From the IMG/VR virus record IMGVR_UViG_3300007177_000160, positions 1 through 64,000 of that record: a DNA stretch of 64,000 bases, one strand, 5' to 3'. Every line of letters starts with the position of its first letter. Within the stretch, counting starts at the first letter, position 1. A program made the translations under genes and the position numbers. The stretch comes from a virus. This document shows positions 12,572 to 61,121 of the stretch, in pieces. The notes beneath the pieces are model-generated. The model made no database searches. It saw only the letters and a program-made list of their open reading frames with translations, and had not been told where the DNA came from.

Positions 12572-15500
12572 TTAAAAAACGTTAACAATGATACCATTTT
12601 GAACATCAATGTTAATCGGAGGTAAAGGAGCGGGTTGTTGGATTGTTACTGTTCCTGAGTATCCAGCCACGCTACTCAATAATCCACTTGTAGAAATTAC
12701 GGGACCGTCAGCTTCTGCATCTAGTTGGGCTAAGTAAAGATTACCTTGGGAGTTGATGTAGGCTTTCTGCGTGCCGTTCTCTTGCCACTCTTGGATAAAG
12801 TGTGCAGAGTTTCTTTGGTTAACAATAAGAGCCTTACCTCCACTTGCAGGACTAGTACGGATAATTAATCCGTGATAAGCATCCATCTGTGCTGCGCTGC
12901 CATGAGTTGTGCTTATACGGTGATTAGAATCTCCTCCGTATTGGAAGTGTAAAGTTTGACCTGCACTTAGGCCGTCAAAACCAAACACACGACCATTAGC
13001 GGAAGCCACATAACTATCTCCGTTAGACCTAAACGAACCGTTTACGTTAAGTTTGTATCCACTATCAGTAGTTGTTCCAATAAGTAAGTTCCCACCGCGC
13101 TTAAGAGTCATAAGTGTAGTACCAGCAGGATAGTCCCAAAGAAAATCTCCAACTGTTGGATGTCCTAGGAAAAACTGCATACTGGCATCAAATCCTCTGT
13201 AATACACGATACCATTAGTTCCTGCATACACACTGTTGTTACTACCGATGTCTAAACTTCCGTTCATAGTAAATGAACCCTGTGTAATCAAGTTACCTGT
13301 TACTCTAAGCCCACCGTAAATTTTGTTCTCTGCTGTTCCATTTAATCCGTAAATTTCTACGCCACCTGTTCCTCCGTTGTATAGGTTGATGTAGTTTCCG
13401 TTAATTCCGTAGATGTAGCGGTTACTTGCATCAGTCATAGACAAGTTGCCACGAATAATTGTATTACCGTTGACATCTAGTTTAAATCCTGAATCAGTTG
13501 ACGTTCCAATAGTGACGTTTCCGTTGGCTTTAATGTGCATTTTGCCATCAGTAACCCACGCGTTACTTCCATCAGCTACGTTATTAGTCGCAAAAATTAA
13601 CTCCCCACGTCCGTAGTTAGCTGTCCAGTTGTAGAAAATAGCAGTCTTACGCGCGTAACTACCCATGTAAATACCTGAAACACTTCCGCTCCCTTCTGAA
13701 CTATTTACTACAGATATTGCTCCCCCAAGCGTACCAAACTTGTCTGCTGATACGGTAAGTAGAGCATCAGGGTTGGTAGTACCAATACCTACATTCCCCC
13801 CTGGAGTAATAATCATTTTGACATCTGCAACACCTACACCTGGATTTCCTGAAGTAGCATTGTTTAAACAGAAATACAAAGCAGACCTTGACCAACTACC
13901 GACTGCTGCCGCTATAATTGCTGTTCTAGGTAAAGTAGAACTGTCGTAAGCAGTGTTAAAGAATAAACTTACGTTTTGATTTTCAGCTAAACTACTTAGA
14001 TGTACTTGTAAATTAGTTCTTCTTATATCAAAGTTATAAGCGGGACTAGCAGTGTTAATGCCTATGTTACCTGAGTTATCAATAACCATTCGGGTTTTGC
14101 TACCTGTAGTATAAAGATCAGTAGTAGCAAAGTACATCTTGGTTCCATAACTACCGTCACTTCTTACGTAAATACCTGCCTGTGCGTTATCTCCGTCCGA
14201 GTAATCACTTGCCCCAAAAGTGATAGCATTACCGAAGTTATCTGTACTTACTCCTGGATCTAGGTGTATGGTTCCAGGCGTTTGTCCTGGAGTAGTTTCA
14301 TTCCAGTTTGCTGACCCCCCAACGATGTTTAGCTTAGCTACAGCAGAGGTAGTGCCGATACCGACGCTTCCAGAAGTAGTAGCAAAGTATGCACTGTTTA
14401 CAGAACGAAGTGTGCCGTTAACATCAAACTTGTATCCATAATCTATGTTTAATCCTACTTGTACGTTTCCACCCAATAAAGAAAGCGCAGGTATGGTGTC
14501 AGAAAAAGTATTTACGTAAAAATATAAAGCTGTTCTAGATTGAATGACTAAGTTCCCAAAAGGATTTGTTCCGTAAGCTTGAACCGTAGTAATGGTGCCG
14601 TACGTCATGCTTCCATCGTCACTCTGAAAACTGATATTTGGATAAGCACCTCTTAAATTGACATAAGGGAAAGTTCCTGTAATCCGAGTACCTCCTACAA
14701 CATGTAAAGGTGTTTCAGGTGCACTGGTTCCAATACCAATGTTTCCATTGGACAACATTGTCATCACACGCGTAGAGTTCGGTAAAAAGAACCCGTCTGC
14801 CAACTTAATGTCCAGTCTTGTTCTGGAAGAAGTTCCAAAATTCTCAAATCGAGAAAGTTCAAATACTGCAGCGGCACCAAATGCCTGACCTGCGGTACCC
14901 TGACGAGCAAGAATCAGTACTTCTTGCGGATCGTTAAGGACAGAAGCCGAAGTTTGTGTTTGGTTAACAAACATCGCTGCACCCGACGTGTAGGCGTAGT
15001 TGTTATCGTCGATAACTTTTGCACCTGCTTGCAATAACACACTGGGAGATGTGGTTCCTATACCTACTCTGTTCGTTGTTGCGTTAACAAAGAAAGTATT
15101 CGTGTCTACGGTAAAGTTACTAGTTACTACTAAATTAGTAGCAACGTTTAATTGATTAGCAACATACGTGTTACTGCCGTCAAAAGAAAATACAGGGGTA
15201 CTACCAGAATAAGACTCAATTAAAAACAGCATTGCTGTCCTTGACGAAATAACCAAGTTACCCCAAGGATTTCCCGTTTTATCCTGTGTTGTATAAAGAC
15301 CACCAAAAGTTACAGCTCCGTCTTCAGACTGTAATACGAATCTAGGATATCCTCCACGAATCAACTGAGTTGGGAAAAACTGTCCAGCTGCTCCGTTTCC
15401 TTGTAGCAACAAAAGACCATCTGCTCCCTGTACGTGCAGTTTTGCAAATGCAGTAGTAACACCAATTCCTACTAACGTATTTGCATTAGTAGCTAAATAA

Positions 15501-18500
15501 CTATTACTGGTAGCTCGGAAGCTTCCGTTGACATCCAGTTTATACCCAGCGTCAACCGTCGTATTGATTAGTACATTTCCGTTACCATAAATTCTAAAGA
15601 GGTCATTATTTCCCCAATGACCCATCGTAATAAAGTTACTGTCAGATCCAGCACCTGCCCAATAGTAACCAAAGTATCCACTATTTTTTAAGCTGGGTGC
15701 TTGTCCTATGACTAAAATGTTACGCTGACCACTTGTCAGGTTAGCAGCAATGTTTTCCTGACTATGTACATAATCTCCAGAATTAGAAGAGTTAACTCTT
15801 AGTGTTGGGTTCCCTGCTGTTCCCGAAGTAGAAATAACTAACTGACCAGTCATTGTGTCCCCCGTAGTGTTTACCCAAACATCAGAAACTGAGGTTAAAT
15901 AACCTGCGGTTGCATGGTTGCCCCAAGAGTATGCAGTGTTCCAGTTAGAAATATTTGTAGTAGTAATAGCTTTTACATGGGACGGGACGGTAGGGTCAGT
16001 TTCTGTAAATGAAGTTAGGTAGCCAGCAGATGCGTGATTTCCCCAGCTAAATGCAGTATTCCAGTTTGTAGAAGTTCCACCAGTAGCGCTGATTGACCCA
16101 TTTACTTGAAGTTTGTTCGTACCGTTGTCAGTACTCGACCCAATAAGAACGTTACCTGTACTAAAGTTACCTTCAATTAATCCTGCGTTATTTCTGTTAC
16201 CTAAAATAAACCAGTTAGATTTAGTCGAGTTTAAACCTGCGTCATATCCTATAAATACGTTATCTCCTGCAGTAGAACTTCCGCCAGCACGAAAACCTAA
16301 ATAAACACTGTACCCTTGAGTTAATGTGGAAATTCCTGAGCCTCCGCCAGCAAATGCACCTACTGCTACAGTCTCTAAAACATCCATAGTTGAGCCAGCA
16401 GCATCGCCAAGAAACGTATTACTATATCCTAAATCTACCTTAGCTCCTGCATCTACGCCTACAAATACATTAGATCCTCCTACTGTAAGATTCCCTGCTG
16501 TTTTTTGTGTTTTTCTCCCTGCACCTGTACCAATAGCTATGTTACGATAAGAAAAAGCAGATTCATTTAAGGCACTATCACCTAGTGCAACAGTTTCACT
16601 TGTTGATGTAGCAACTGATAAGATATTTCTACCAAATCCAAAAGTATTAGCTGCAAGCGAAATATTATTAAAGTTATTATTTCCTACAGAATATACAGAG
16701 TCGCTATTTGCTTTTATAGTTATGTGCGTAGATACGGTTATATTAGCTGTGGTTGTATTTCCAGCTGCTGTAACCTGTGCTAGGGTAGGAATAGGCGCAC
16801 TAGTCAAATACCCCTGAGCAGTTACCCAGCTTTCTGTTGCAATATTCTGCCAGGCTGTACCATTGTATAGTAAGTTTTTGTTATTGGTTATGTCGTAGAC
16901 TTGTAAACCAGTTGCAGGAGTAGCGATAGCCACTGCCTGTGCATTAATCATGCGAGGTTGTAGAAAACCAAAAGAAGTACTTCTGATTTCAAACATAGCA
17001 GAAGCATCTGCTGTACCAAAGTTGGTATCAATCACCAAAACACCTGCACCACCCAATCTTCTAGAAATTATTCTAGACATCCTCTCAATTGCACTAGAAT
17101 AAATAGTCATACCGATTATATTAAAATCAGTCATAATTTGGATAGCACCGTCTGGTAATTCTCTAACCCCTAAAGTATAATTTCCCGCACTAGGACCTCT
17201 TAGTAATAATGAACCATTATCTCTTAGTTGCAGTATGTTCGTGTTTGTACTATCTTGAACCAAAAAAGAAGTAGTAGTTGAAGTCGTTCCTGTTCCTTTT
17301 ATGCGAGTACCTCCATTTACGTCTAATTTAAAACCAGCATCAGTGCCCTGATTTATTAATACGTTTCCTGTGTCTCCTAGAATTCTAATAGAAGTACCAT
17401 CTACACCTATTCCTAAGAATGAGGGAGTTTGGGCAATTCCTTGACTATAGGAGTGCATTATTTTAAATGTAACTCCTGGAGTATTTTGTCGAGTAAAATT
17501 AATAGATGTTGTTGCACCCCCATTAGCAAATAAGTTAATGTATGGACTTTTATCTAATCCTACGCCTCCTATTTGAACTCCAGAATAATAAGAAAATGCG
17601 CCAAATAATTCTAGTGCATTTCCTGTAGTATCTAACGTAGAGCGAATTGCTCCAGAACTTGTAATTGCACCGACACTAATACTGTTTGTAGTTGTGTTAC
17701 CTGCTGTAGTTACCTGAGCTAATGTTGGCGTAGCAGGAGTAGGTAATGCTCCATAAGTAAGTTCTCCTGTAGTTGTGTTGTAGTATACTTGGTTTGTTTG
17801 TGTTGCGTTGGTTAGTCCCTGGTGTATTACTTTACCTACTGTTGTTTCTATAGCCCTAAAATCAGCTGCAGCAGTAATAGTTGGATTTACGTACAAACCT
17901 CGACTTATTCCACTCGCACCTCCTGTTTGGTTAATAGTTTGGTTTAATGTTAAGGCATTGACTACAGCTGTCCCACTAGTAGGAGCAAAAGTATGAGTAA
18001 TACGTTGGGTATCATGGGTTCCTGATGTAAGTGTTAAAGTAGCGTTAGGTCTAACCACCAAGACCTGTGCTTTATTTGCAATGACTTCTATTGTTACGTT
18101 GGTAGAATCTGCCCAAGGTGCCGATATTGTTAGATTTTGGTTGACTCTAGCTTGTAGTCCCAGAGCCACTACAGTATTAGTTGTAAAATCACTCTGAGTA
18201 GCTGTAATTCCTCCAACATCACTTACTGTAAATAAAGAGTTGCCTAGAGAATTTAATACGGTAAAAGCATTAGTAGAACCTGTAAAACCTGATCCCCTAA
18301 CTGTCAATGAATTAGTAGCTGAACCAGTAACTGTCACGTTACCTGAGAATCTACCTGTACCATTAACGTCTAATTTAAAACCTGCGTCAGTCGTTGTACC
18401 AATTAAAACGTTTCCTGCACCATTGATTGTAAACAACCTGACAAAGTTTGCTGTGCCTGCAGTCGCTGCCGACCTATAAATAGCAAACATATCAGTATTT

Positions 18501-20968
18501 GCAGTCTCATAGTTGAGACCCATAATCCAACCAGGCTGTGTAGTATCTTGATGAACCCAGGACGATGAAATATCACGCACAATGTTTGCCATCATGCTAA
18601 TTCCTTTATATCCAGTACCAGTCTCTGGCATTATAGAAGAATTACTGTTACCTACAAATATTGCAGGATATGCAGCTGAATTGGTATGTCTAGAAGGAAG
18701 TGTTGTACCAAACAACATGTTCTTACCAGCAGATGTAGATAGATCTCCTTGAATTCTTGCAGTTCCATTTACGTCTAACTTAAAGCCAGCATCCGTAGTA
18801 GTTCCTATTAGAACGTTTCCAGAACTTGTCGCTAGTTGTACGCCAGTTGTATTAGAAAACGTTCCAGTCACAGCAACACCTGCAGTACCAACACTTAAGC
18901 GTTTTGTTCCGCCTGTACCTAATCCTACTTCATATAAACCCTGTATATAAGTTGATCCTTCAGTAGTTAATGCGCCCGTTCCGCCAACAAACTCAATGAA
19001 GTTTGATCCTCCATAACCAGAAGTATCAAATTGTCTAATACGTGTTCTACCGCCTGTTACCTGGGTGTTTAACATAGTGACAATTATACCCGCACCTCTG
19101 TTGACACTTGCACTTCCTCCTGGATTTATCACACGTAAAAGGTCCGTATCTGTTGTTGCTGTTTGAATGTCTAAATCAAATGTCGGAGCAGAAACACCAA
19201 TACCTAAACGCTTGTTTGTATTATCATAAAGTAATCCAGTACTTCCTCCAACTCGTAAACCATAATTGGTAACACCCGTAAATGCACCATTGGTAAACGT
19301 AGGATCTATATCCAAGCCTACTAATACATCATTGTTAGCAGCAGCAACTAAGGTATTGTTAAAATACACTCCTCTTGCAAGTGCTGAGGTTGCTGTAACA
19401 CTGCCTACAACACTCAAAAAAGAATTACTCCCTTTTGTTAAAGATGGTGAATTACTTATTAAAAGACCGTTTGTAGCAGCTAAATGATTGTATAACCAAC
19501 CATAAGTAACCCATCCGTAAGCAGTATTGTTGTAAATTCTGTTAGACGCATCGTAAAATACACCCGAGCTAGTACCTTGTCCTACTTGAATAGCACCCCC
19601 AGCTGTATTAATACCTGCAGGCGCAGTTATTAAACCTACACTGCGCATGGTTCCATTTACATCTAACTTGTAACCCGCGTCTGTGAAAGTACCTCCATTT
19701 TGAATTAATACATTCCCAGAACTAAATATTTTAAAATCTGGATTTCCGTCAGAAGTCCTATTATGTTGAAATGAACCATCGTTATTTAATTGTAATAAAA
19801 AATAATTAGGAGTTGCTCCTTGATGGAAGAAACCAAGATAATCTCCTGTCCTGTGATATCCTATGGTTGCTTTATTAACAGAATTTATTTGAAATCCAAA
19901 ATTAGCATTTCCAGTACCAGTATTATTTACCATAAAGGTAAAGTTGCCACTACTTGTATTAGTGACTGTTAGTATAGGAGATGTAGTAGAACTTGCACCA
20001 ACTATATTTGTAATACCGTTTACAGTCAACCCACCAACAGTAATACTATTCATAGTAGTGTTCCCAGCAGAAGTTACTTGGTCTAAAGTAGGAACAGAAG
20101 TTAAGAAGTTAGGAGTCCAGTTCTTCCAGAGACCGTCTGAGTCTCTACGAAGAAGTTGGCCTGTAGATGGAGCAGAGATAAGAACATCGTGGATTTCGTT
20201 TAACTCGAATCCGTTCTGTACTTTTACAAAAATCTCTCCGTTGTTATTGTTTACGCGAGTAACAACACCCAAAAACACCATATGGGCAGGTGCTACAGGC
20301 TTGTTTGCTAGACCATAAAGCAGGTTCCCGTTAGTGCCTAACCATACAAGGTCGCCTAACGTAGCCATTGAGGTATCTAACCCAGTTAGTAGGCCTTCTG
20401 TAATTACAAAACCTTTACCGTTAAGAGCAAGATCCTGAGCAATAAGACCCATAGTCTTACTGGAAGTCATCTCAGAAGCGTTAGAAGCCTTTGTAACAAT
20501 CATGTTTGTACCGTCCGATGACGAAACATACACAGCCTGTCCTCTCAAAAGCACCTCACCTGCTTTGACTTCGTGTTTAACAGTAGAAGTCCACTGTGCG
20601 TAGTTATCAATCCACTCTACATTATAATCAGTATTATTAATCTTTGCTAAGATTTGCCCTGTTGAACCACCTGGAGGTAGGTTTCCTCCTGCTGTAGCCA
20701 CTGATTTCCAGGTTCCGTCATCAGCCAAGTAAAGATTTCCTGTACCAATAGCTCCTGTACCCAACCTATTGGGGTCGATGATACCTGTAGAAATATAAGC
20801 TGCGTCAAATAATCGCCATCTTACAGGACCTGCCTGAGTAGCAGGAGGTACCAAAAAGTAAGCAGGCGGCATATATAACTCATTGGCACTGCCATCTCTA
20901 GGATGTAAGGGATTATATCTTGCTAAATCCTGTTGTTCTTGAGTAGTTATGGGATTGCTATAAGGCAT
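12572..20968 (-). CDS. Giant modular tail fibre (2798 aa)
   Basis: About nine GNVLIGTTTDAGFKLDVNG-type repeats, several GNVGIGTT.P...L.V repeats and three PTL.QVT.AGNTT repeats; G/T/N/S-rich. Confidence 0.9.
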   Translation of the reverse strand: MPYSNPITTQEQQDLARYNPLHPRDGSANELYMPPAYFLVPPATQAGPVRWRLFDAAYISTGIIDPNRLGTGAIGTGNLYLADDGTWKSVATAGGNLPPGGSTGQILAKINNTDYNVEWIDNYAQWTSTVKHEVKAGEVLLRGQAVYVSSSDGTNMIVTKASNASEMTSSKTMGLIAQDLALNGKGFVITEGLLTGLDTSMATLGDLVWLGTNGNLLYGLANKPVAPAHMVFLGVVTRVNNNNGEIFVKVQNGFELNEIHDVLISAPSTGQLLRRDSDGLWKNWTPNFLTSVPTLDQVTSAGNTTMNSITVGGLTVNGITNIVGASSTTSPILTVTNTSSGNFTFMVNNTGTGNANFGFQINSVNKATIGYHRTGDYLGFFHQGATPNYFLLQLNNDGSFQHNRTSDGNPDFKIFSSGNVLIQNGGTFTDAGYKLDVNGTMRSVGLITAPAGINTAGGAIQVGQGTSSGVFYDASNRIYNNTAYGWVTYGWLYNHLAATNGLLISNSPSLTKGSNSFLSVVGSVTATSALARGVYFNNTLVAAANNDVLVGLDIDPTFTNGAFTGVTNYGLRVGGSTGLLYDNTNKRLGIGVSAPTFDLDIQTATTDTDLLRVINPGGSASVNRGAGIIVTMLNTQVTGGRTRIRQFDTSGYGGSNFIEFVGGTGALTTEGSTYIQGLYEVGLGTGGTKRLSVGTAGVAVTGTFSNTTGVQLATSSGNVLIGTTTDAGFKLDVNGTARIQGDLSTSAGKNMLFGTTLPSRHTNSAAYPAIFVGNSNSSIMPETGTGYKGISMMANIVRDISSSWVHQDTTQPGWIMGLNYETANTDMFAIYRSAATAGTANFVRLFTINGAGNVLIGTTTDAGFKLDVNGTGRFSGNVTVTGSATNSLTVRGSGFTGSTNAFTVLNSLGNSLFTVSDVGGITATQSDFTTNTVVALGLQARVNQNLTISAPWADSTNVTIEVIANKAQVLVVRPNATLTLTSGTHDTQRITHTFAPTSGTAVVNALTLNQTINQTGGASGISRGLYVNPTITAAADFRAIETTVGKVIHQGLTNATQTNQVYYNTTTGELTYGALPTPATPTLAQVTTAGNTTTNSISVGAITSSGAIRSTLDTTGNALELFGAFSYYSGVQIGGVGLDKSPYINLFANGGATTSINFTRQNTPGVTFKIMHSYSQGIAQTPSFLGIGVDGTSIRILGDTGNVLINQGTDAGFKLDVNGGTRIKGTGTTSTTTSFLVQDSTNTNILQLRDNGSLLLRGPSAGNYTLGVRELPDGAIQIMTDFNIIGMTIYSSAIERMSRIISRRLGGAGVLVIDTNFGTADASAMFEIRSTSFGFLQPRMINAQAVAIATPATGLQVYDITNNKNLLYNGTAWQNIATESWVTAQGYLTSAPIPTLAQVTAAGNTTTANITVSTHITIKANSDSVYSVGNNNFNNISLAANTFGFGRNILSVATSTSETVALGDSALNESAFSYRNIAIGTGAGRKTQKTAGNLTVGGSNVFVGVDAGAKVDLGYSNTFLGDAAGSTMDVLETVAVGAFAGGGSGISTLTQGYSVYLGFRAGGSSTAGDNVFIGYDAGLNSTKSNWFILGNRNNAGLIEGNFSTGNVLIGSSTDNGTNKLQVNGSISATGGTSTNWNTAFSWGNHASAGYLTSFTETDPTVPSHVKAITTTNISNWNTAYSWGNHATAGYLTSVSDVWVNTTGDTMTGQLVISTSGTAGNPTLRVNSSNSGDYVHSQENIAANLTSGQRNILVIGQAPSLKNSGYFGYYWAGAGSDSNFITMGHWGNNDLFRIYGNGNVLINTTVDAGYKLDVNGSFRATSNSYLATNANTLVGIGVTTAFAKLHVQGADGLLLLQGNGAAGQFFPTQLIRGGYPRFVLQSEDGAVTFGGLYTTQDKTGNPWGNLVISSRTAMLFLIESYSGSTPVFSFDGSNTYVANQLNVATNLVVTSNFTVDTNTFFVNATTNRVGIGTTSPSVLLQAGAKVIDDNNYAYTSGAAMFVNQTQTSASVLNDPQEVLILARQGTAGQAFGAAAVFELSRFENFGTSSRTRLDIKLADGFFLPNSTRVMTMLSNGNIGIGTSAPETPLHVVGGTRITGTFPYVNLRGAYPNISFQSDDGSMTYGTITTVQAYGTNPFGNLVIQSRTALYFYVNTFSDTIPALSLLGGNVQVGLNIDYGYKFDVNGTLRSVNSAYFATTSGSVGIGTTSAVAKLNIVGGSANWNETTPGQTPGTIHLDPGVSTDNFGNAITFGASDYSDGDNAQAGIYVRSDGSYGTKMYFATTDLYTTGSKTRMVIDNSGNIGINTASPAYNFDIRRTNLQVHLSSLAENQNVSLFFNTAYDSSTLPRTAIIAAAVGSWSRSALYFCLNNATSGNPGVGVADVKMIITPGGNVGIGTTNPDALLTVSADKFGTLGGAISVVNSSEGSGSVSGIYMGSYARKTAIFYNWTANYGRGELIFATNNVADGSNAWVTDGKMHIKANGNVTIGTSTDSGFKLDVNGNTIIRGNLSMTDASNRYIYGINGNYINLYNGGTGGVEIYGLNGTAENKIYGGLRVTGNLITQGSFTMNGSLDIGSNNSVYAGTNGIVYYRGFDASMQFFLGHPTVGDFLWDYPAGTTLMTLKRGGNLLIGTTTDSGYKLNVNGSFRSNGDSYVASANGRVFGFDGLSAGQTLHFQYGGDSNHRISTTHGSAAQMDAYHGLIIRTSPASGGKALIVNQRNSAHFIQEWQENGTQKAYINSQGNLYLAQLDAEADGPVISTSGLLSSVAGYSGTVTIQQPAPLPPINIDVQNGIIVNVF

Positions 20969-23213: not shown

Positions 23214-24101
23214 GTCGTTTTCTTGGGTGTTACACTTCTCTAAAACCTGTGTAATAATCGTAGAAATTGTACTTCAGCTCCAGCTCTCGGCTAAAATCAG
23301 TGTATTTTGCAGTTTTGTTTAACTTTTTTGGTCTAACCCCCGTAAATTTGGAGACCTTTAAATTAAAAAGTTAAACAAAATGACAATTCAATGACACAAA
23401 TTGAGGTAAAAAAGGGTTAAAAAGTGGGGATTTTCCCCTCTCAGTCCTTTAATTCTTTCCTAAAAACAAGTCATTTGGTTGAGGCTTGACGTATAGAAAT
23501 AAAGAGGATTCGGTTAAAAGAGTCAGACAGATGGGCTTAACTGGGTTTATTATCGTCTCTATTGTTCTTATCTCTCCCTCTCCTTCTCTCTCTCTTTTCT
23601 CTTTCATTACCTCTTATTAAGGTAATGAACTAATCAGTGTTATGCGCGGGTTTCGGCTCCTGCTCTCTATTGATTCTTTATTAATTCTTTATTGATTCTT
23701 TAAGGTTGATAAACCTTGACATGCCTATGGGGCTACTATGTTGTTCTTCTATTAAGGGTAGAAGTATCAAGCTTAAGCGAATTTCCTTGCTTAAAGCAAT
23801 GACAAGTTAGTGCAGACTTAAAAATTAGGCAGTCTATTACATCTATTATCGTATGATGTAAAGACTTTAAAGACTGGTAACAGTTACGATACAGTATAGA
23901 GAAACCACACTATACTTTATGCCAGGTTTGTGGTGAACCTGAATTTAGAATGTTCTATACGTATTAGTATAGACTTCGGTTTAGTAGGGGGTGTGCATCA
24001 GCTCTGAAATGTTAGGCGACATTTCTGCTACTAGATTTATTTTAATTTAAAAACTAAAAAGGGATATCAGCCGTATCCCGAAGTCCTCAAATAAGCAGAT
24101 T

Positions 24102-28328: not shown

Positions 28329-28398
28329 AGTCAGGTGGCGTAATTGGTAACGCCTTGGTTTATTACAAGAGATACGAGTTCGAGTCTCGTCCTGGCTG
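28329..28398 (+). tRNA. tRNA-like RNA with aberrant anticodon arm (identity undetermined)
   Basis: AGTCAGG/CCTGGCT acceptor, GCGT/ACGC D stem and ACGAG-TTCGAGT-CTCGT T arm are intact; anticodon arm is CTTG-GTTTATTA-CAAG (4 bp, 8-nt loop). Confidence 0.7.
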
Positions 28399-28509
28399 CG
28401 AGAACTGCCTACACAGTTCGGGTTTTCATCATATTGATTTTTTTTTGATTAGTGAATTAAGGCCTTGTAGGGGGCCTTTTTTATTATCAGTACAATTAGT
28501 ATAATCGAT

Positions 28510-48199: not shown

Positions 48200-49171
48200 T
48201 GGAAAAACTATTAAACATACCAGATGATTGGTATAGTAAACTCAAGCACATCGTAGAGTCAGATTATTTCAAACAACTCTCTGCTTTTATTAAACAGAGA
48301 AGATCCGTTACTGCTGTATTTCCACACAGCAACGAAGTATTTAGAGCATTTAATGAAACTCCATTTGGGAAGATACGCTGCGTCATTATTGGTATGGATT
48401 AAAGAAATTTGCGTATAAATTAATACCTTACGCAAATAGGGTCCATGTAAAACGGGGAGAATTGCTGGAACATCCTAACAAGGACAATCAGCAGCCGAGC
48501 TTAGACAGTAATGTCTTTGAAGGTTCAACGACTAACAACCGAGTCCTACCAGATAATACTGAGGACAGTAATGTTGACACGAGCACCCTGCACTAATTTA
48601 ATTAGTGATGATATAGTCTGAACTATATAGTAATATATAGAAGTGTATGATAAAGAACTTACACGATAACACAATGCCATACCCAACCCTTTACAATGGA
48701 CAACCAGTAGCTTGTGGGCTAGCATTTGCACCTAGATACAAAGAATTTGTACCTCCGTCTCTTAGAATGATTTATAAAAACCTCAAGGACGGTTTATACA
48801 AAAACGATTTAGATTGCCCAGAAACTCTAGATTTTACTAGTTGGGCACAACAAGGTGTATTCTTACTTAATGCAGCTCTTACAGTAGAGCATACTAGAGC
48901 AGGTTCACACCTAAAACAATGGGCTCCATTTACAGAAGCAGTAATTAAAGCTATCTCAGATAATTCATCTGGAGTTATCTTTTGTTTCTGGGGTAAAGAT
49001 GCTCAACAATACAGACAATTTGTAAACCATAGTGCACATTACGTTCTACTGGCACCGCATCCTGTATCAGCTGTATACAAAGGTGGTACGTGGGACTGTC
49101 ACCACTTTGAAGAAGTCAACGAGATATTAAAAAGAAATAATGGAGAAACAATCCAATGGCTGAGTTCCTAG
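48199..49171 (+). CDS. ung: Uracil-DNA glycosylase, split: exon 1 48199-48399, exon 2 48677-49171 (231 aa spliced)
   Basis: Splicing restores VIIGMD|PYP; also GLAF, PPSLR, WAQQGVFLLN.ALTV, SH...W, FWG..A, HP.S. Confidence 0.92.
48400..48676 (+). mobile_element. Group I intron (277 nt, no ORF) in ung
   Basis: 5' exon ends in U and pairs with the IGS (ATGGAT/GTCCAT, U-G pair); P AATTGCTGGAA, Q AATCAGCAG, R TTCAACGACTAA, S GATATAGTCT; terminal omega-G at 48676. Confidence 0.93.
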
Positions 49172-57076: not shown

Positions 57077-57510
57077 TGGGTACTAATACAGAAGTGAAGG
57101 AATTAAATCTCACAGGTAAGCTTTTATGTGGATTTGTATTTTCTAAAGACAGTTTGGGTGCGTTGATGAGTGCAGGGTTAATCAATATTTATCTTGATGA
57201 TTATGGCTACACATCTCGACACACAGATTGTATGTTCTTTTTATTTAATTCTAACAACAAGTATTACGACTCATTAGAAAAAAAGATTACCAGCTTTGTA
57301 AGCTTCCACGATTGGTATGAAGTGGGAGAAGGTAGACGTATGTTAGTGTTTAAGATAGGTGATGCTTACAAGAAAGACTTCAAAAACTTTAAACAGAATA
57401 ATTTTAAAGATTTTTCTGTAAGTGCTTTGAAGGTTTTACCAATTGTAAACTTTAATTTTGAACTAGATTATTCAAAAGAAATTTATCGATATCACTTATG
57501 TCCAAACTAA
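57076..57510 (+). CDS. Hypothetical protein
   Basis: 144-aa ORF. Confidence 0.7.
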   Translation: MGTNTEVKELNLTGKLLCGFVFSKDSLGALMSAGLINIYLDDYGYTSRHTDCMFFLFNSNNKYYDSLEKKITSFVSFHDWYEVGEGRRMLVFKIGDAYKKDFKNFKQNNFKDFSVSALKVLPIVNFNFELDYSKEIYRYHLCPN

Positions 57511-58502
57511 CACACGCTGAAAAGAAACTAAACCTATACCTAGACATAGCAGAAAGAGTCGCTCAAGAGTCTTACTGTAAGCGTTTACAAGTGGGCGCTA
57601 TCATTGTAAAAGATGGAAATATTATTTCCTTTGGATACAATGGAGCTATAGCAGGCACTGTAAACAAATGTGAAGAATGTCCTGCCGAAGAAATTTGGCA
57701 GGATACTTCATATTTAAACTATCAAGTTAGTTCTTTAGGAAAAGTCAAACGATTAGGTACTACATTAACAAAAGAGATTAAAAAAGCAAATGGAACTGTT
57801 TATATACAGAATGTTTCTTTAGAAGAAAGAGAGTTAGGAATTTCTTGTAATAAAAAGGGTTATCCTGTTGTAAAAATTAACTCTAAAAGTGTTCTAGTAC
57901 ATCAATTAGTAGCAAAGGCATTTATTAAAAACCCAGACTATAGTTATTACAATCAAATAAACCACATAGATGGAGACAAAAATAATAACAACGTAACTAA
58001 CTTAGAATGGTGTACTAATCGCTATAATTGTGAAGAGCGTAGTAAAAAAACACATGCAAATAGAGAACTTCCTTTAGGAGTCTATTTAGATAAGACTAGA
58101 CCAAATACTCCATATATAGGAAGAATTTATGCAAATAATAAAATTCAAATATGTAGATTTGCTACTATAGAAGAGGCTGAAAAATTTGTGAATTATTTTA
58201 AAAATAGTAAAGATTATAAAACTTTTCGGTACGATACTACTAACTTTAGTACGACTTTACCTAGCGTACTTCACGCAGAATCTAATGCTATAACTAAGGC
58301 TTGTAAGTCACCTATATCAACAGAAGGGGCTACAATGTACTTAACGCATTCGTGCTGCTTAGAGTGCGCCAAGTTGATTATTCAAAGTGGCATCAAAAAA
58401 GTCTACTATCTACAGGACTATAGGGATAAATCAGGGATCAATCTTTTAAAGAATTGTGACATTGATGTAGTAAGAATTAACAGAAAACCAACCAACATAT
58501 AA
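57498..58502 (+). CDS. dCMP deaminase with in-frame NUMOD4-HNH insertion
   Basis: SYC.R.QVGA, GYNG, HAESNAI, CCLECAKLI.QSGI flank YQVSSLGKVK...VHQLVA..F...INHIDGDKNNN.VTNLEWCT...N. Confidence 0.9.
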   Translation: MSKLTHAEKKLNLYLDIAERVAQESYCKRLQVGAIIVKDGNIISFGYNGAIAGTVNKCEECPAEEIWQDTSYLNYQVSSLGKVKRLGTTLTKEIKKANGTVYIQNVSLEERELGISCNKKGYPVVKINSKSVLVHQLVAKAFIKNPDYSYYNQINHIDGDKNNNNVTNLEWCTNRYNCEERSKKTHANRELPLGVYLDKTRPNTPYIGRIYANNKIQICRFATIEEAEKFVNYFKNSKDYKTFRYDTTNFSTTLPSVLHAESNAITKACKSPISTEGATMYLTHSCCLECAKLIIQSGIKKVYYLQDYRDKSGINLLKNCDIDVVRINRKPTNI

Positions 58503-59097: not shown

Positions 59098-59421
59098 ATG
59101 AGACTATTTTATTACACCGAAAAACAAAAAATCGAAGACGGTGAAGAAATGGAACTAGTTACCAAGACTGGTTTTTCTTTTGATTTAGATAAGGTTGTTA
59201 TGACCTACCCTGAAGAAAAAGGACTAGCCGTTGTTTTGGCACACAATGCCGACAAAATCAATCCTGTAGAGTATGAATACAAGATTGACCCTGTAAGCAA
59301 GAAGAAAGTTCCAGTAAGAGTTAAGAAGTTTGAAATTACTTCCGAGCCTATTGTTATTTCTTTAACTAACATCGAAGAGATTAACAGATTCTTTGCAGAA
59401 ACAGGCGGACCCAAGTACTAA
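59098..59421 (+). CDS. Hypothetical protein
   Basis: 107 aa; last plus-strand gene. Confidence 0.75.
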   Translation: MRLFYYTEKQKIEDGEEMELVTKTGFSFDLDKVVMTYPEEKGLAVVLAHNADKINPVEYEYKIDPVSKKKVPVRVKKFEITSEPIVISLTNIEEINRFFAETGGPKY

Positions 59422-59440: not shown

Positions 59441-59478
59441 AAAGAAAACCCAGTCTTAATAGGCTGGGTTTCTTTTTT
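59441..59478. terminator. Bidirectional terminator at the convergence point
   Basis: AAAGAAAACCCAG...CTGGGTTTCTTTTTT. Confidence 0.85.
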
Positions 59479-59480
59479 CG

Positions 59481-59848
59481 AGGAGATAGAGGGAATTGAA
59501 CCCTCGTCCAGAGAAAGCTGCAATTTAATGCTGTTTACACGCTTAGTACTGAGCAAGCTCTGCACCGTAAGGGTTGACCGAAGTCAGATTCCACCACCTA
59601 GTTGAGTTGTCGGTAAACTAGGAAACCTAGAAGCAAGCTTCATGTGCCATTTTCTGTTCCAGGGGATGACTCCCCGTGACTTAGGCTGCCATTTGATATT
59701 CGTTCACGAACTCAACTGCATCTTCAAAAGTCATGTCAGATAATTCTACGTTGCCGTTTAATTAGTTTGATACGTGATTATAGAGAACAGTACCATCTCT
59801 CTGCGTGAGCACTAAACCCAATCAATCCTGTCGATTCCTGTTATCCCC
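59481..59848 (-). ncRNA. ssrA: tmRNA; tag (A)GNVELSDMTFEDAVEFVNEYQMAA
   Basis: 5' GGGGATA...GGAATCGAC; 3' GAC-GAGGG-TTCAATT-CCCTC-TATCTCC with G3-U70; tag ORF 59755-59681 ends AA*; promoter TAACTTTG just upstream. Confidence 0.93.
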
Positions 59849-59861
59849 AATTACTACAAAG

Positions 59862-60125
59862 TTATATTCTAATTACTCTTGGTTGATCGATTTCGTCAGA
59901 AAAAATTACTTTTAATCCACAAATAGAACTTATAAAGACTCCTTCTGGAATCTCTGCATCTTCCTCAGTGTGAAATAACTCTCGTAAAAATTCTTTGTAA
60001 TGAGCATCAGTCATCATAACAGCATTAGGGTAAACTCCCAAATGGCGAGTTCCTTTATCGTCTGTTTCTTTTTCCGAATCAAGAAAAAACTGGTTAATTT
60101 GGGATTCAAGTTCCTGAATTGTCAT
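59862..60125 (-). CDS. Hypothetical protein
   Basis: 87-aa ORF. Confidence 0.7.
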   Translation of the reverse strand: MTIQELESQINQFFLDSEKETDDKGTRHLGVYPNAVMMTDAHYKEFLRELFHTEEDAEIPEGVFISSICGLKVIFSDEIDQPRVIRI

Positions 60126-60134
60126 AGCGGTAGA

Positions 60135-61121
60135 CTAAATAATTTTGCCGTCAATAATCTTCATATTATTAACATGGAAGGAAAGATCGGAATTAACTTC
60201 CACAAAAGCAAATCCATGTGACCATTTTGTGTAAGCAAAAGGTCTATAATCAGGTGATAAAGTACAAAGACAACCCATTGACCAAACGCCAGTAGATTCT
60301 CCGTTGATGTTGTTTTCGGAGTGGTGAGATACTTGATGGTTGTGTCCAAACAAAGTAGAAGACTTAGCCTTTAAAAACATTCCTCTTGCAGGGTTAACAG
60401 GTGAGAATACACTTTCTCCCATTTCGTGTCCGTGCAATACGTTCAATTTACCTAATTTAATAATCTCCCTATTAACCAAGTTGATTTTAAACTCACTCAA
60501 TGCTAACAGGTTTTCAAACTTCAAATTGTCAACGTCGCTAAACTCTTTGGCGTTACGTAATAGGTAATTACGAACACGCTCCTCGTGGTTACCTAACTTG
60601 TAATATATAGGTATAATTGGAAATAGTTCACGCAAGTAAGAGAAAAACGCTTTAGTCATCTCGATTTCCTCACGTAACGATGGCATACCTACCTCCTTAA
60701 TAAACGAACTTACTGGATGGCAGTCCATTATATCTCCATTTAGAATGATACAATCTATGTCATTGTTTAATCCCCACTCTAAGGCCGTAGACACAGCATC
60801 CATATCGTGATAAGGTATGTGTATGTCAGATAAAACTAAATAACGTCCTTCCTTTAGGTGAACGTTAGCCATTTCTTTGTTGTGGGAGAATACTTTTAGT
60901 TTTTCTAATCCCTCTTGAATTGTAGATTTATTAGTCACAAATGATTTGTCTTTTAAAGCCTTAAAATGATAGTTCCCTTTTACTCCCCTAAAATATCTAA
61001 TCGTATCTCTTACTCTCTCAATAGATGTAAGTTGTGGGTTTTCTTCTAAGATTAGTTTAGCAAGAGTGCGGTTCGGAACGTCAGGATACTTTTCTAAGTA
61101 AGCCTTAACGATTTCTCTCAT
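60135..61121 (-). CDS. Calcineurin-like metallophosphoesterase
   Basis: SDIH, GDIMD, GNHE, HGHE, GHNH, GCLC, W.HGF. Confidence 0.9.
   Translation of the reverse strand: MREIVKAYLEKYPDVPNRTLAKLILEENPQLTSIERVRDTIRYFRGVKGNYHFKALKDKSFVTNKSTIQEGLEKLKVFSHNKEMANVHLKEGRYLVLSDIHIPYHDMDAVSTALEWGLNNDIDCIILNGDIMDCHPVSSFIKEVGMPSLREEIEMTKAFFSYLRELFPIIPIYYKLGNHEERVRNYLLRNAKEFSDVDNLKFENLLALSEFKINLVNREIIKLGKLNVLHGHEMGESVFSPVNPARGMFLKAKSSTLFGHNHQVSHHSENNINGESTGVWSMGCLCTLSPDYRPFAYTKWSHGFAFVEVNSDLSFHVNNMKIIDGKII

Follow-up and report, generated by a model that had tools for sequence, protein, structure and literature searches.

A one-piece tmRNA with a long, conserved tag, carried as an optional cassette by freshwater crAss-like phages

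Why should a virus without a recognizable smpB gene carry a complete tmRNA gene, and why should the peptide tag specified by that gene be more than twice the usual length? Phage tmRNAs are known from the mycobacteriophage Bxz1 group and Bacillus phage G (PMC4131195), as two-piece forms from Melnitz and the pelagimyophages (PMC9004378), and from huge phages (PMC7162821); they have been counted in 402 of 18,146 phage genomes, in 133 unique forms (PMC9004378). Such genes appear in the lists of genome papers but have hardly ever been studied, and it is generally taken for granted that their tags act as ordinary degradation signals. The window analyzed here, the first 64 kb of a 114,265-bp IMG/VR record that has direct terminal repeats and is classed as complete, had been described in an earlier note as carrying a tmRNA with a long acidic tag and a U discriminator, for which three roles were suggested: rescue of ribosomes stalled by host defences, a changed fate of tagged proteins, or sequestration of SmpB.

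The gene is a genuine one-piece tmRNA. ARAGORN makes a single tmRNA call in the window, 59480-59848 on the minus strand, and gives it a 24-codon tag, and the full RF00023 model of Rfam (model positions 1-374) matches 59478-59848(-) at 73.9 bits with an E-value of 7.9e-27, against a gathering score of 47, which places the match far beyond chance; the RNA is not permuted and has no riboswitch. The two programs, both suggested beforehand as checks, agree with each other and confirm the elements of the early observation, all of which are present in the sequence (Table 1). The tag called by ARAGORN is exactly the one that had been quoted, its frame opens on the Gly resume codon GGC and ends in Ala-Ala, the acceptor stem pairs at 7/7 positions including G3.U70, and CCA is not encoded, the bases after the discriminator being CGA; a gene need not encode its CCA to count as a tmRNA. 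The reported lack of smpB extends beyond the window, as there is no PF01668 match in the entire record. Only the strand of the gene had been left unstated. The interpretation placed upon these elements is partly supported, as set out below, and the gene represents a new family of an already known type of phage tmRNA.

Table 1. Positions of the tmRNA gene, its parts and its flanking features in the window.
Feature	Position	Strand	Remarks
tmRNA (ssrA) gene	59481..59848	-	G1 to discriminator, 368 nt; ARAGORN and Rfam RF00023
Acceptor stem, 5' strand GGGGAUA, with G3 of G3.U70	59842..59848	-	7/7 paired
Acceptor stem, 3' strand UAUCUCC, with U70	59482..59488	-	pairs with GGGGAUA
Discriminator	59481..59481	-	U in the window record, A in every relative read
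T arm GAGGG UUCAAUU CCCUC	59489..59505	-	5-bp stem, 7-nt UUCNANN loop
Pseudoknot 1 region, upstream of tag	59769..59802	-	stem AGAGA/UCUCU predicted (RNAalifold)
Tag frame, 24 codons	59684..59755	-	resume codon GGC at 59753-59755, UAAAC before it
Tag stop UAA	59681..59683	-	inside the long hairpin made by the tag region
Hairpin GGGGA...UCCCC just past the stop, helix 5 position	59662..59675	-	RNAalifold, alignment
Variable pseudoknot 2-4 region	59520..59660	-	about 21 nt more than most relatives (alignments)
3' trailer CGA	59478..59480	-	CAA in most relatives, CCA in L097, CCG in L093
Hairpin with U/T runs on both sides, putative intrinsic terminator shared by the tmRNA and convergent plus-strand genes	59446..59471	.	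found on the plus strand
Promoter-like box TAnnTTTG, TAACTTTG	59857..59864	-	9-16 nt upstream of the mature 5' end
87-aa ORF, upstream flank of insertion site	59862..60125	-	without family match
107-aa ORF, other flank of insertion site	59098..59421	+	without family match

Relatives of the gene were sought by exact-word and degenerate-codon scans of IMG/VR and of JGI metagenomes, and among polymerase relatives of the phage. These yielded the same type of tmRNA on about 14 further contigs from phages or metagenomes, with RF00023 scores of 84-101.5 bits and eight tag variants of 24-25 residues. In ten aligned genes the acceptor is 7/7 paired in 10/10, with G1-C72, G2-C71 and G3.U70 present and G3.U70 invariant; it occurs in three versions, and pairs 6 and 7 covary, both sides differing between clades. 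The T stem is 5/5 paired in all members despite five different stem sequences, pointing to compensatory changes, and RNAalifold finds 19 pairs in which both sides have changed, mostly in the long helix 2. Because the acceptor and T stems have stayed paired while their sequences changed on both sides, the RNA appears to have been kept functional.

The remaining RNA parts are more variable in form. Both stems of pseudoknot 1 can be formed, its loop GGUAC being able to pair with a downstream GUAUC; the region is nearly invariant and so offers no covariation, and the GAUAC of L097 is a one-sided change that keeps the pairing. A plain hairpin takes the place of this pseudoknot in the L094/L098 subclade. 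The tmRNAs of L094, L098 and L099, in which a short hairpin with a GGAA loop replaces pseudoknot 1 (alignment columns 55-80) and part of the pseudoknot 2-4 region is lost, are 334-340 nt long and constitute a natural minimized form. The window-type version of the pseudoknot 2-4 region is shared with a contig of metagenome X1. At the 3' end, L097 is the single aligned relative that encodes CCA; beyond it, the position of the terminator hairpin after the gene is conserved, with a different sequence in L085 and L086. Upstream, a TAnnTTTG motif lies 16-22 nt before the gene in the five closest members, and the corresponding TAACTTTG box probably acts as the tmRNA promoter. The motif is not enriched in the whole window (87 matches against 82 expected) and on its own therefore cannot name a Bacteroidota host.

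The most distinctive part of the RNA is its tag. All members resume at GGC after UAAAC, read 24-25 codons, end in M/V-A-A and stop at UAA; in the window gene, ARAGORN places the coding part at gene positions 94-168, corresponding to window positions 59755-59681 with the stop included. The other tags are identical to that of the window at 18-21 of 24 residues and share with it a family signature of a G-N-V-E start, an M-x-F-E core, F-V, and an E-Y-x-M/V-A-A end. The tags carry a net charge of -3 to -6; three Glu residues never vary, nor do most hydrophobic positions, and within the approximately 17 residues that precede Y-x-M/V-A-A the residues G, N, V, E, S, M, F, E, A, F, and V are invariant. 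Conservation of the tag at least equals that of the carriers' DNA polymerases, which are 72-79% identical. Among the 23 columns that vary across the eight tag variants, 7, 3, and 13 fall at codon positions 1, 2, and 3, respectively, a modest bias (chi-square, p ~0.04); seven codons vary synonymously only, the sole length change is one whole codon, in frame, and the replacements are conservative (V/I/L/M, D/E, M/V, and T/A). Such a pattern suggests, within the limits of a modest bias, that the tag evolves as coding sequence and is kept as a peptide. The tag region also folds as a long hairpin (alignment columns 118-177) in which RNAalifold finds pairs changed on both sides, so the third-position changes are partly compensatory for the hairpin, and the signals of coding and of RNA structure overlap to some extent. 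A helical hydrophobic moment of 0.26-0.32 was calculated for the tag and is not significant, since 8-11% of shuffles reach it, and comparison of the tag with PDB sequences gave no match.

The setting of the gene suggests that it is optional to the phages that carry it. It fills the convergent gap between the two flanking ORFs of Table 1, and this pair of genes also brackets it in L101, L109, L110, L112, and L124. The same flanking genes are separated by an empty gap of 46-86 nt in L107, L111, and L127. Carriers and empty-site phages are about equally close to the window by their polymerases: identity to the window is 72-79% in carriers L109, L110, L112, and L124, 96% in L101, and 74-76% in the empty-site phages. 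RF00023 has no match in five related records, two of which are 93-94% complete. The more distant members, L093-L099, have other neighbors, with tRNA genes directly downstream in two cases, and no small neighboring gene co-occurs strictly with the tmRNA in the loci compared. From these genome comparisons, the tmRNA is an accessory cassette that appears to have been gained or lost repeatedly, and yet is conserved where present. The best overall explanation, in which we have good confidence, is that the putative promoter, the gene, and the terminator together form a cassette in a freshwater crAss-like phage lineage.

Directly beside the tmRNA block, at 60135-61121 (-), lies a gene for a calcineurin-like phosphoesterase with 72-95% protein identity to genes in many unrelated phages of 30-70 kb; it is missing at this site in most tmRNA-bearing relatives and looks like a freely exchanged accessory gene. 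When it was used as bait for relatives, 79 of 81 loci, and five such records, lacked the tmRNA, making it a poor marker of kinship.

A gene that close relatives can do without could be a passenger, a piece of host ssrA acquired through integration at the host tmRNA gene and of no use to the phage, and integration at ssrA is indeed common among phages, as is the carriage of ssrA fragments (PMC9004378). This origin is extremely improbable here, as the gene is full length with its own expression signals, and it has been kept at one site in phages with polymerases of only 72-79% identity, its stems changing in a compensatory way and its tag staying conserved. Compensatory evolution at a fixed phage site in a genome with no integrase family match is not explained by a host-derived passenger. 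A conserved 23-nt word of the family and the 27-nt 3' end of a variant from an RNA library are each without an exact match in 185,579 species genomes of bacteria and archaea. The long-tag family thus appears, provisionally, to be restricted to phage contigs, the scan of bacterial genomes having comprised these two exact patterns.

Several lines of evidence bear on the phage and its host. The DNA polymerase is closest to that of Leptolyngbya phage Lbo-JY46 (49%) and then to those of many crAss-like phages (38-41%), and the major capsid protein has weak matches to Lbo-JY46 and to a crAss-type gut phage. Lbo-JY46, the nearest cultured relative, has no tmRNA, and a literature search on this phage returned nothing. 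The stretch is present wholly or partly in 20 public runs of 15 studies, labelled as freshwater, aquatic, or estuary metagenomes; the four of these runs that were aligned to the window are all labelled freshwater or aquatic. Bacteroidota are the usual host phylum of crAss-like phages and are the likely host phylum in this case. The TAnnTTTG box upstream of the gene fits Bacteroidota; the sole relative in culture comes, according to its record, from a cyanobacterium. Across the entire 114,265-bp record there is no domain match to ClpP, Lon, or tyrosine integrase, just as there is none to SmpB.

Taken together, these features probably describe a working tmRNA cassette that relies on trans-translation run by the host and whose tag appears to bear a second recognition element. 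The RNA would be transcribed in the infected cell, trimmed, and given its CCA by host enzymes, after which host AlaRS would charge it with alanine through G1-C72, G2-C71, and G3.U70. Host SmpB and EF-Tu would bring the charged tmRNA to ribosomes stalled on broken mRNAs, where translation would resume at GGC, adding Ala and 24 further residues and releasing the ribosome. The Y-x-M/V-A-A end of the tag resembles an ordinary C-terminal degron, and the conserved front of about 17 residues would serve as the second recognition element, so that tagged proteins would be recognized by a different adaptor, protease, or other factor. Four steps in this scheme, namely the charging, the use of host SmpB, the promoter, and the role of the tag extension, are ones that we infer. 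Most likely, judging from the pattern of conservation, the insert that separates the first two residues from the last seven carries this second signal, for which the SspB-binding part of the E. coli tag offers a precedent. A more specific version, put forward tentatively, is that the tag front is a phage-specified signal that would re-label rescued nascent chains, directing them to a different host protease or adaptor or to a phage factor, or protecting them from ClpXP. Among the three roles suggested at the outset, a changed fate of tagged proteins accordingly fits the conserved extension best, though what the extension does is again something that we infer.

Sequestration of SmpB, another of these roles, fares less well. 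As a decoy, the tmRNA would bind host SmpB (perhaps also AlaRS or EF-Tu) without tagging anything and so block trans-translation in the host, which would suit a phage that has no smpB and, in the window record, a discriminator that could lower charging; the RNA of mycobacteriophage DS6A, which consists of the tRNA-like domain only, has been proposed to titrate SmpB (PMC4131195). A decoy could dispense with both the tag frame and the pseudoknots, whereas here the peptide specified by the frame is conserved and the one indel stays in frame, and the family keeps A73 and every other alanine determinant of the tRNA-like domain. Sequestration is therefore disfavored for the family as a whole and, as an account of this gene, very unlikely. 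The window gene resembles the DS6A relic (PMC4131195) in being phage-borne, in lacking smpB, and possibly in being poorly charged if its U73 is real; it differs in being full length, with a conserved tag frame and pseudoknots, and since the frame is conserved, a pure decoy for SmpB, as envisaged for DS6A, does not explain it.

The U discriminator had been regarded as a meaningful trait of this RNA, and this part of the early reading does not hold. A73 is found in all 12 distinct relatives whose 3' end was read, and contigs of two independent lake metagenomes read A at 59481 (19.1/19.1 in X1 and 91.1/91.1 in X3), both of them also without one base at 59479. The X1 contig, the nearest environmental strain, differs from the window at 22 of 1,541 positions (~98.5% identical) and carries A73. 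An exact search of IMG/VR for the U73 form returned nothing, and the window end is in fact a compound private change, AC to UCG, made up of A to U plus an extra G. By these comparisons, U73 appears to be private to one record, as a recent mutation or an assembly error, and not a feature of the family. None of the listed runs is the source sample, the best share of words being 0.77. In either case U73 is no evidence for a new design and is to be dropped as a feature, which removes a false lead: nothing should be built upon the U discriminator.

If UCG is an assembly or sequencing artefact, the real phage would have A73 and an ordinary acceptor end. In keeping with this, U73 occurs in no other contig or run, the X1 strain has A73 while sharing the window-type pseudoknot region and nearly all of 1.5 kb of sequence, and the site adjoins a homopolymer A/T run; a compound change of this kind is, however, atypical for a consensus error in a short-read assembly, and an artefact is possible but doubtful. 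Should U73 instead be real, its expected effect would be on charging. The tRNA-Ala of Prokarya, of Archaea, and of the eukaryal cytoplasm keeps A73, and minihelices in which this base is mutated are severely affected in their recognition by AlaRS; G3.U70 is the main AlaRS determinant and alone supports substantial charging in model systems (PMC9976931). As A73 is an AlaRS determinant, U73 is expected to weaken charging, and the window allele would then probably be a poorer AlaRS substrate. Such an allele might be a recent step in the decay of a dispensable gene on its way to the loss seen in sister phages. The cassette is absent from many close relatives, no family member scores lower with Rfam than the window copy (73.9 bits against 84-101.5), and a determinant of AlaRS is the base affected (PMC9976931). 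Against decay, there is no damage to the tag frame, to G3.U70, to any stem, to the promoter-like box, or to the terminator, and G3.U70 alone would still give substantial charging, to judge from the model systems (PMC9976931); the altered pseudoknot 2-4 region, being found in a strain with A73 too, is not part of any decay. A real, decaying allele is on the whole rather unlikely. As a side possibility, U73 alleles might be real and serve to tune charging or to switch it off.

Compared with known systems, the RNA combines a standard body with an unusual tag. It shares with standard bacterial tmRNA the full-length RF00023 match, G3.U70, the T arm, a predicted pseudoknot before the tag, and the Gly resume codon. 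It is unlike that RNA in being encoded on a virus without smpB, in the U73 of the window record, in its unencoded CCA, in a tag of 24-25 residues in which about 15 conserved residues are added between the first two positions and the final seven, and in a tag region that folds as a long hairpin. The Bacteroides tag, GETNYALAA, has the same type of end, N/E-Y-x-hydrophobic-A-A (bioRxiv 10.1101/2025.03.18.644028). Like known phage tmRNAs, which usually occur without smpB and are patchy within a phage group, it is a complete gene in a lytic-type genome; unlike them, it belongs to a freshwater crAss-like lineage and has no sequence match among 50,697 phage records, neither by blastn of the gene nor by tblastn of the tag. 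The two-piece Melnitz and pelagimyophage forms differ from the one-piece, unpermuted window tmRNA. Tags that are both long and acidic are also found in the Bxz1 group, so this theme is not unique to the present family. A literature search for a link of tmRNA to crAss-like phages found none beyond annotation mentions. In Mycoplasma, too, ssrA tags are extended to more than twice the usual length, and Lon takes the place of ClpXP in reading them (Gur and Sauer, 2008; Ge and Karzai, 2009, as cited in PMC11986505); the extra residues of these tags carry recognition information and provide a model for how the extension here might work. There is no sequence similarity between the two, the Ala-Ala end is kept here, and this phage encodes neither Lon nor ClpP.

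As for expression, metatranscriptomes offer a hint only. Run X15 contains a 335-nt contig that covers 59506-59841, almost exactly the tmRNA gene, and a second contig over the 107-aa ORF, with none over 59898-60600, and pieces of the gene are present in X16. The contigs of these RNA runs leave the 3' 25 nt uncovered, the discriminator included; transcript ends, strand, and level cannot be read from contigs, and DNA may be present in RNA libraries. One of the X16 pieces, on window positions 59505-59597, combines an L083-type body with a different T arm (from 59505) and an encoded ACCA 3' end, and so represents another variant of the family; a word from this variant has no exact match in the genome or metagenome contig collections.

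The wider interest of the family lies in a tag that has remained constant as a peptide while core proteins drifted to about 75% identity, encoded by an optional gene whose sister phages have clean empty sites. Conservation of the tag within an optional cassette argues that the extra residues are read by something, and carriers and empty-site sister phages provide natural plus/minus comparators. Identifying what reads the tag would reveal how a virus benefits when it rewrites the quality-control label of the cell, and could also supply new orthogonal degradation tags for hosts of the Bacteroidota type. If re-labelling were true, the recurring long acidic tags in unrelated families of phage tmRNAs would point to a general viral strategy.

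Other features of this genome merit brief mention. Two giant ORFs are present on the minus strand, one of 2,798 aa at 12572-20968, without a PHROG match, and one of 4,798 aa at positions 69804-84200 of the genome. A tRNA-like gene at 28329-28399 (+), which scores 45.7 bits with the Rfam tRNA model and to which ARAGORN assigns no anticodon (a two-letter 'ta' loop call), adjoins tRNA-Met and lies near tRNA-Glu; a similarly odd tRNA, with a four-letter anticodon call, is found 5 nt after the tmRNA of L096. The window also contains a full-length match to the Hatchet self-cleaving ribozyme at 23696-23830 (+) (RF02678, 73.1 bits against 51) and a group I intron match at 48386-48640 (+) (RF00028, 70.3 bits against 50). 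Finally, an HNH/NUMOD4 endonuclease module at 57644-58265 lies in frame inside a dCMP deaminase (ORF 57498-58502); this stretch is cleanly absent from L002, and the deaminase is present as two adjacent pieces without the module in L101, L107, L109, and others, so that the module is a mobile insertion.
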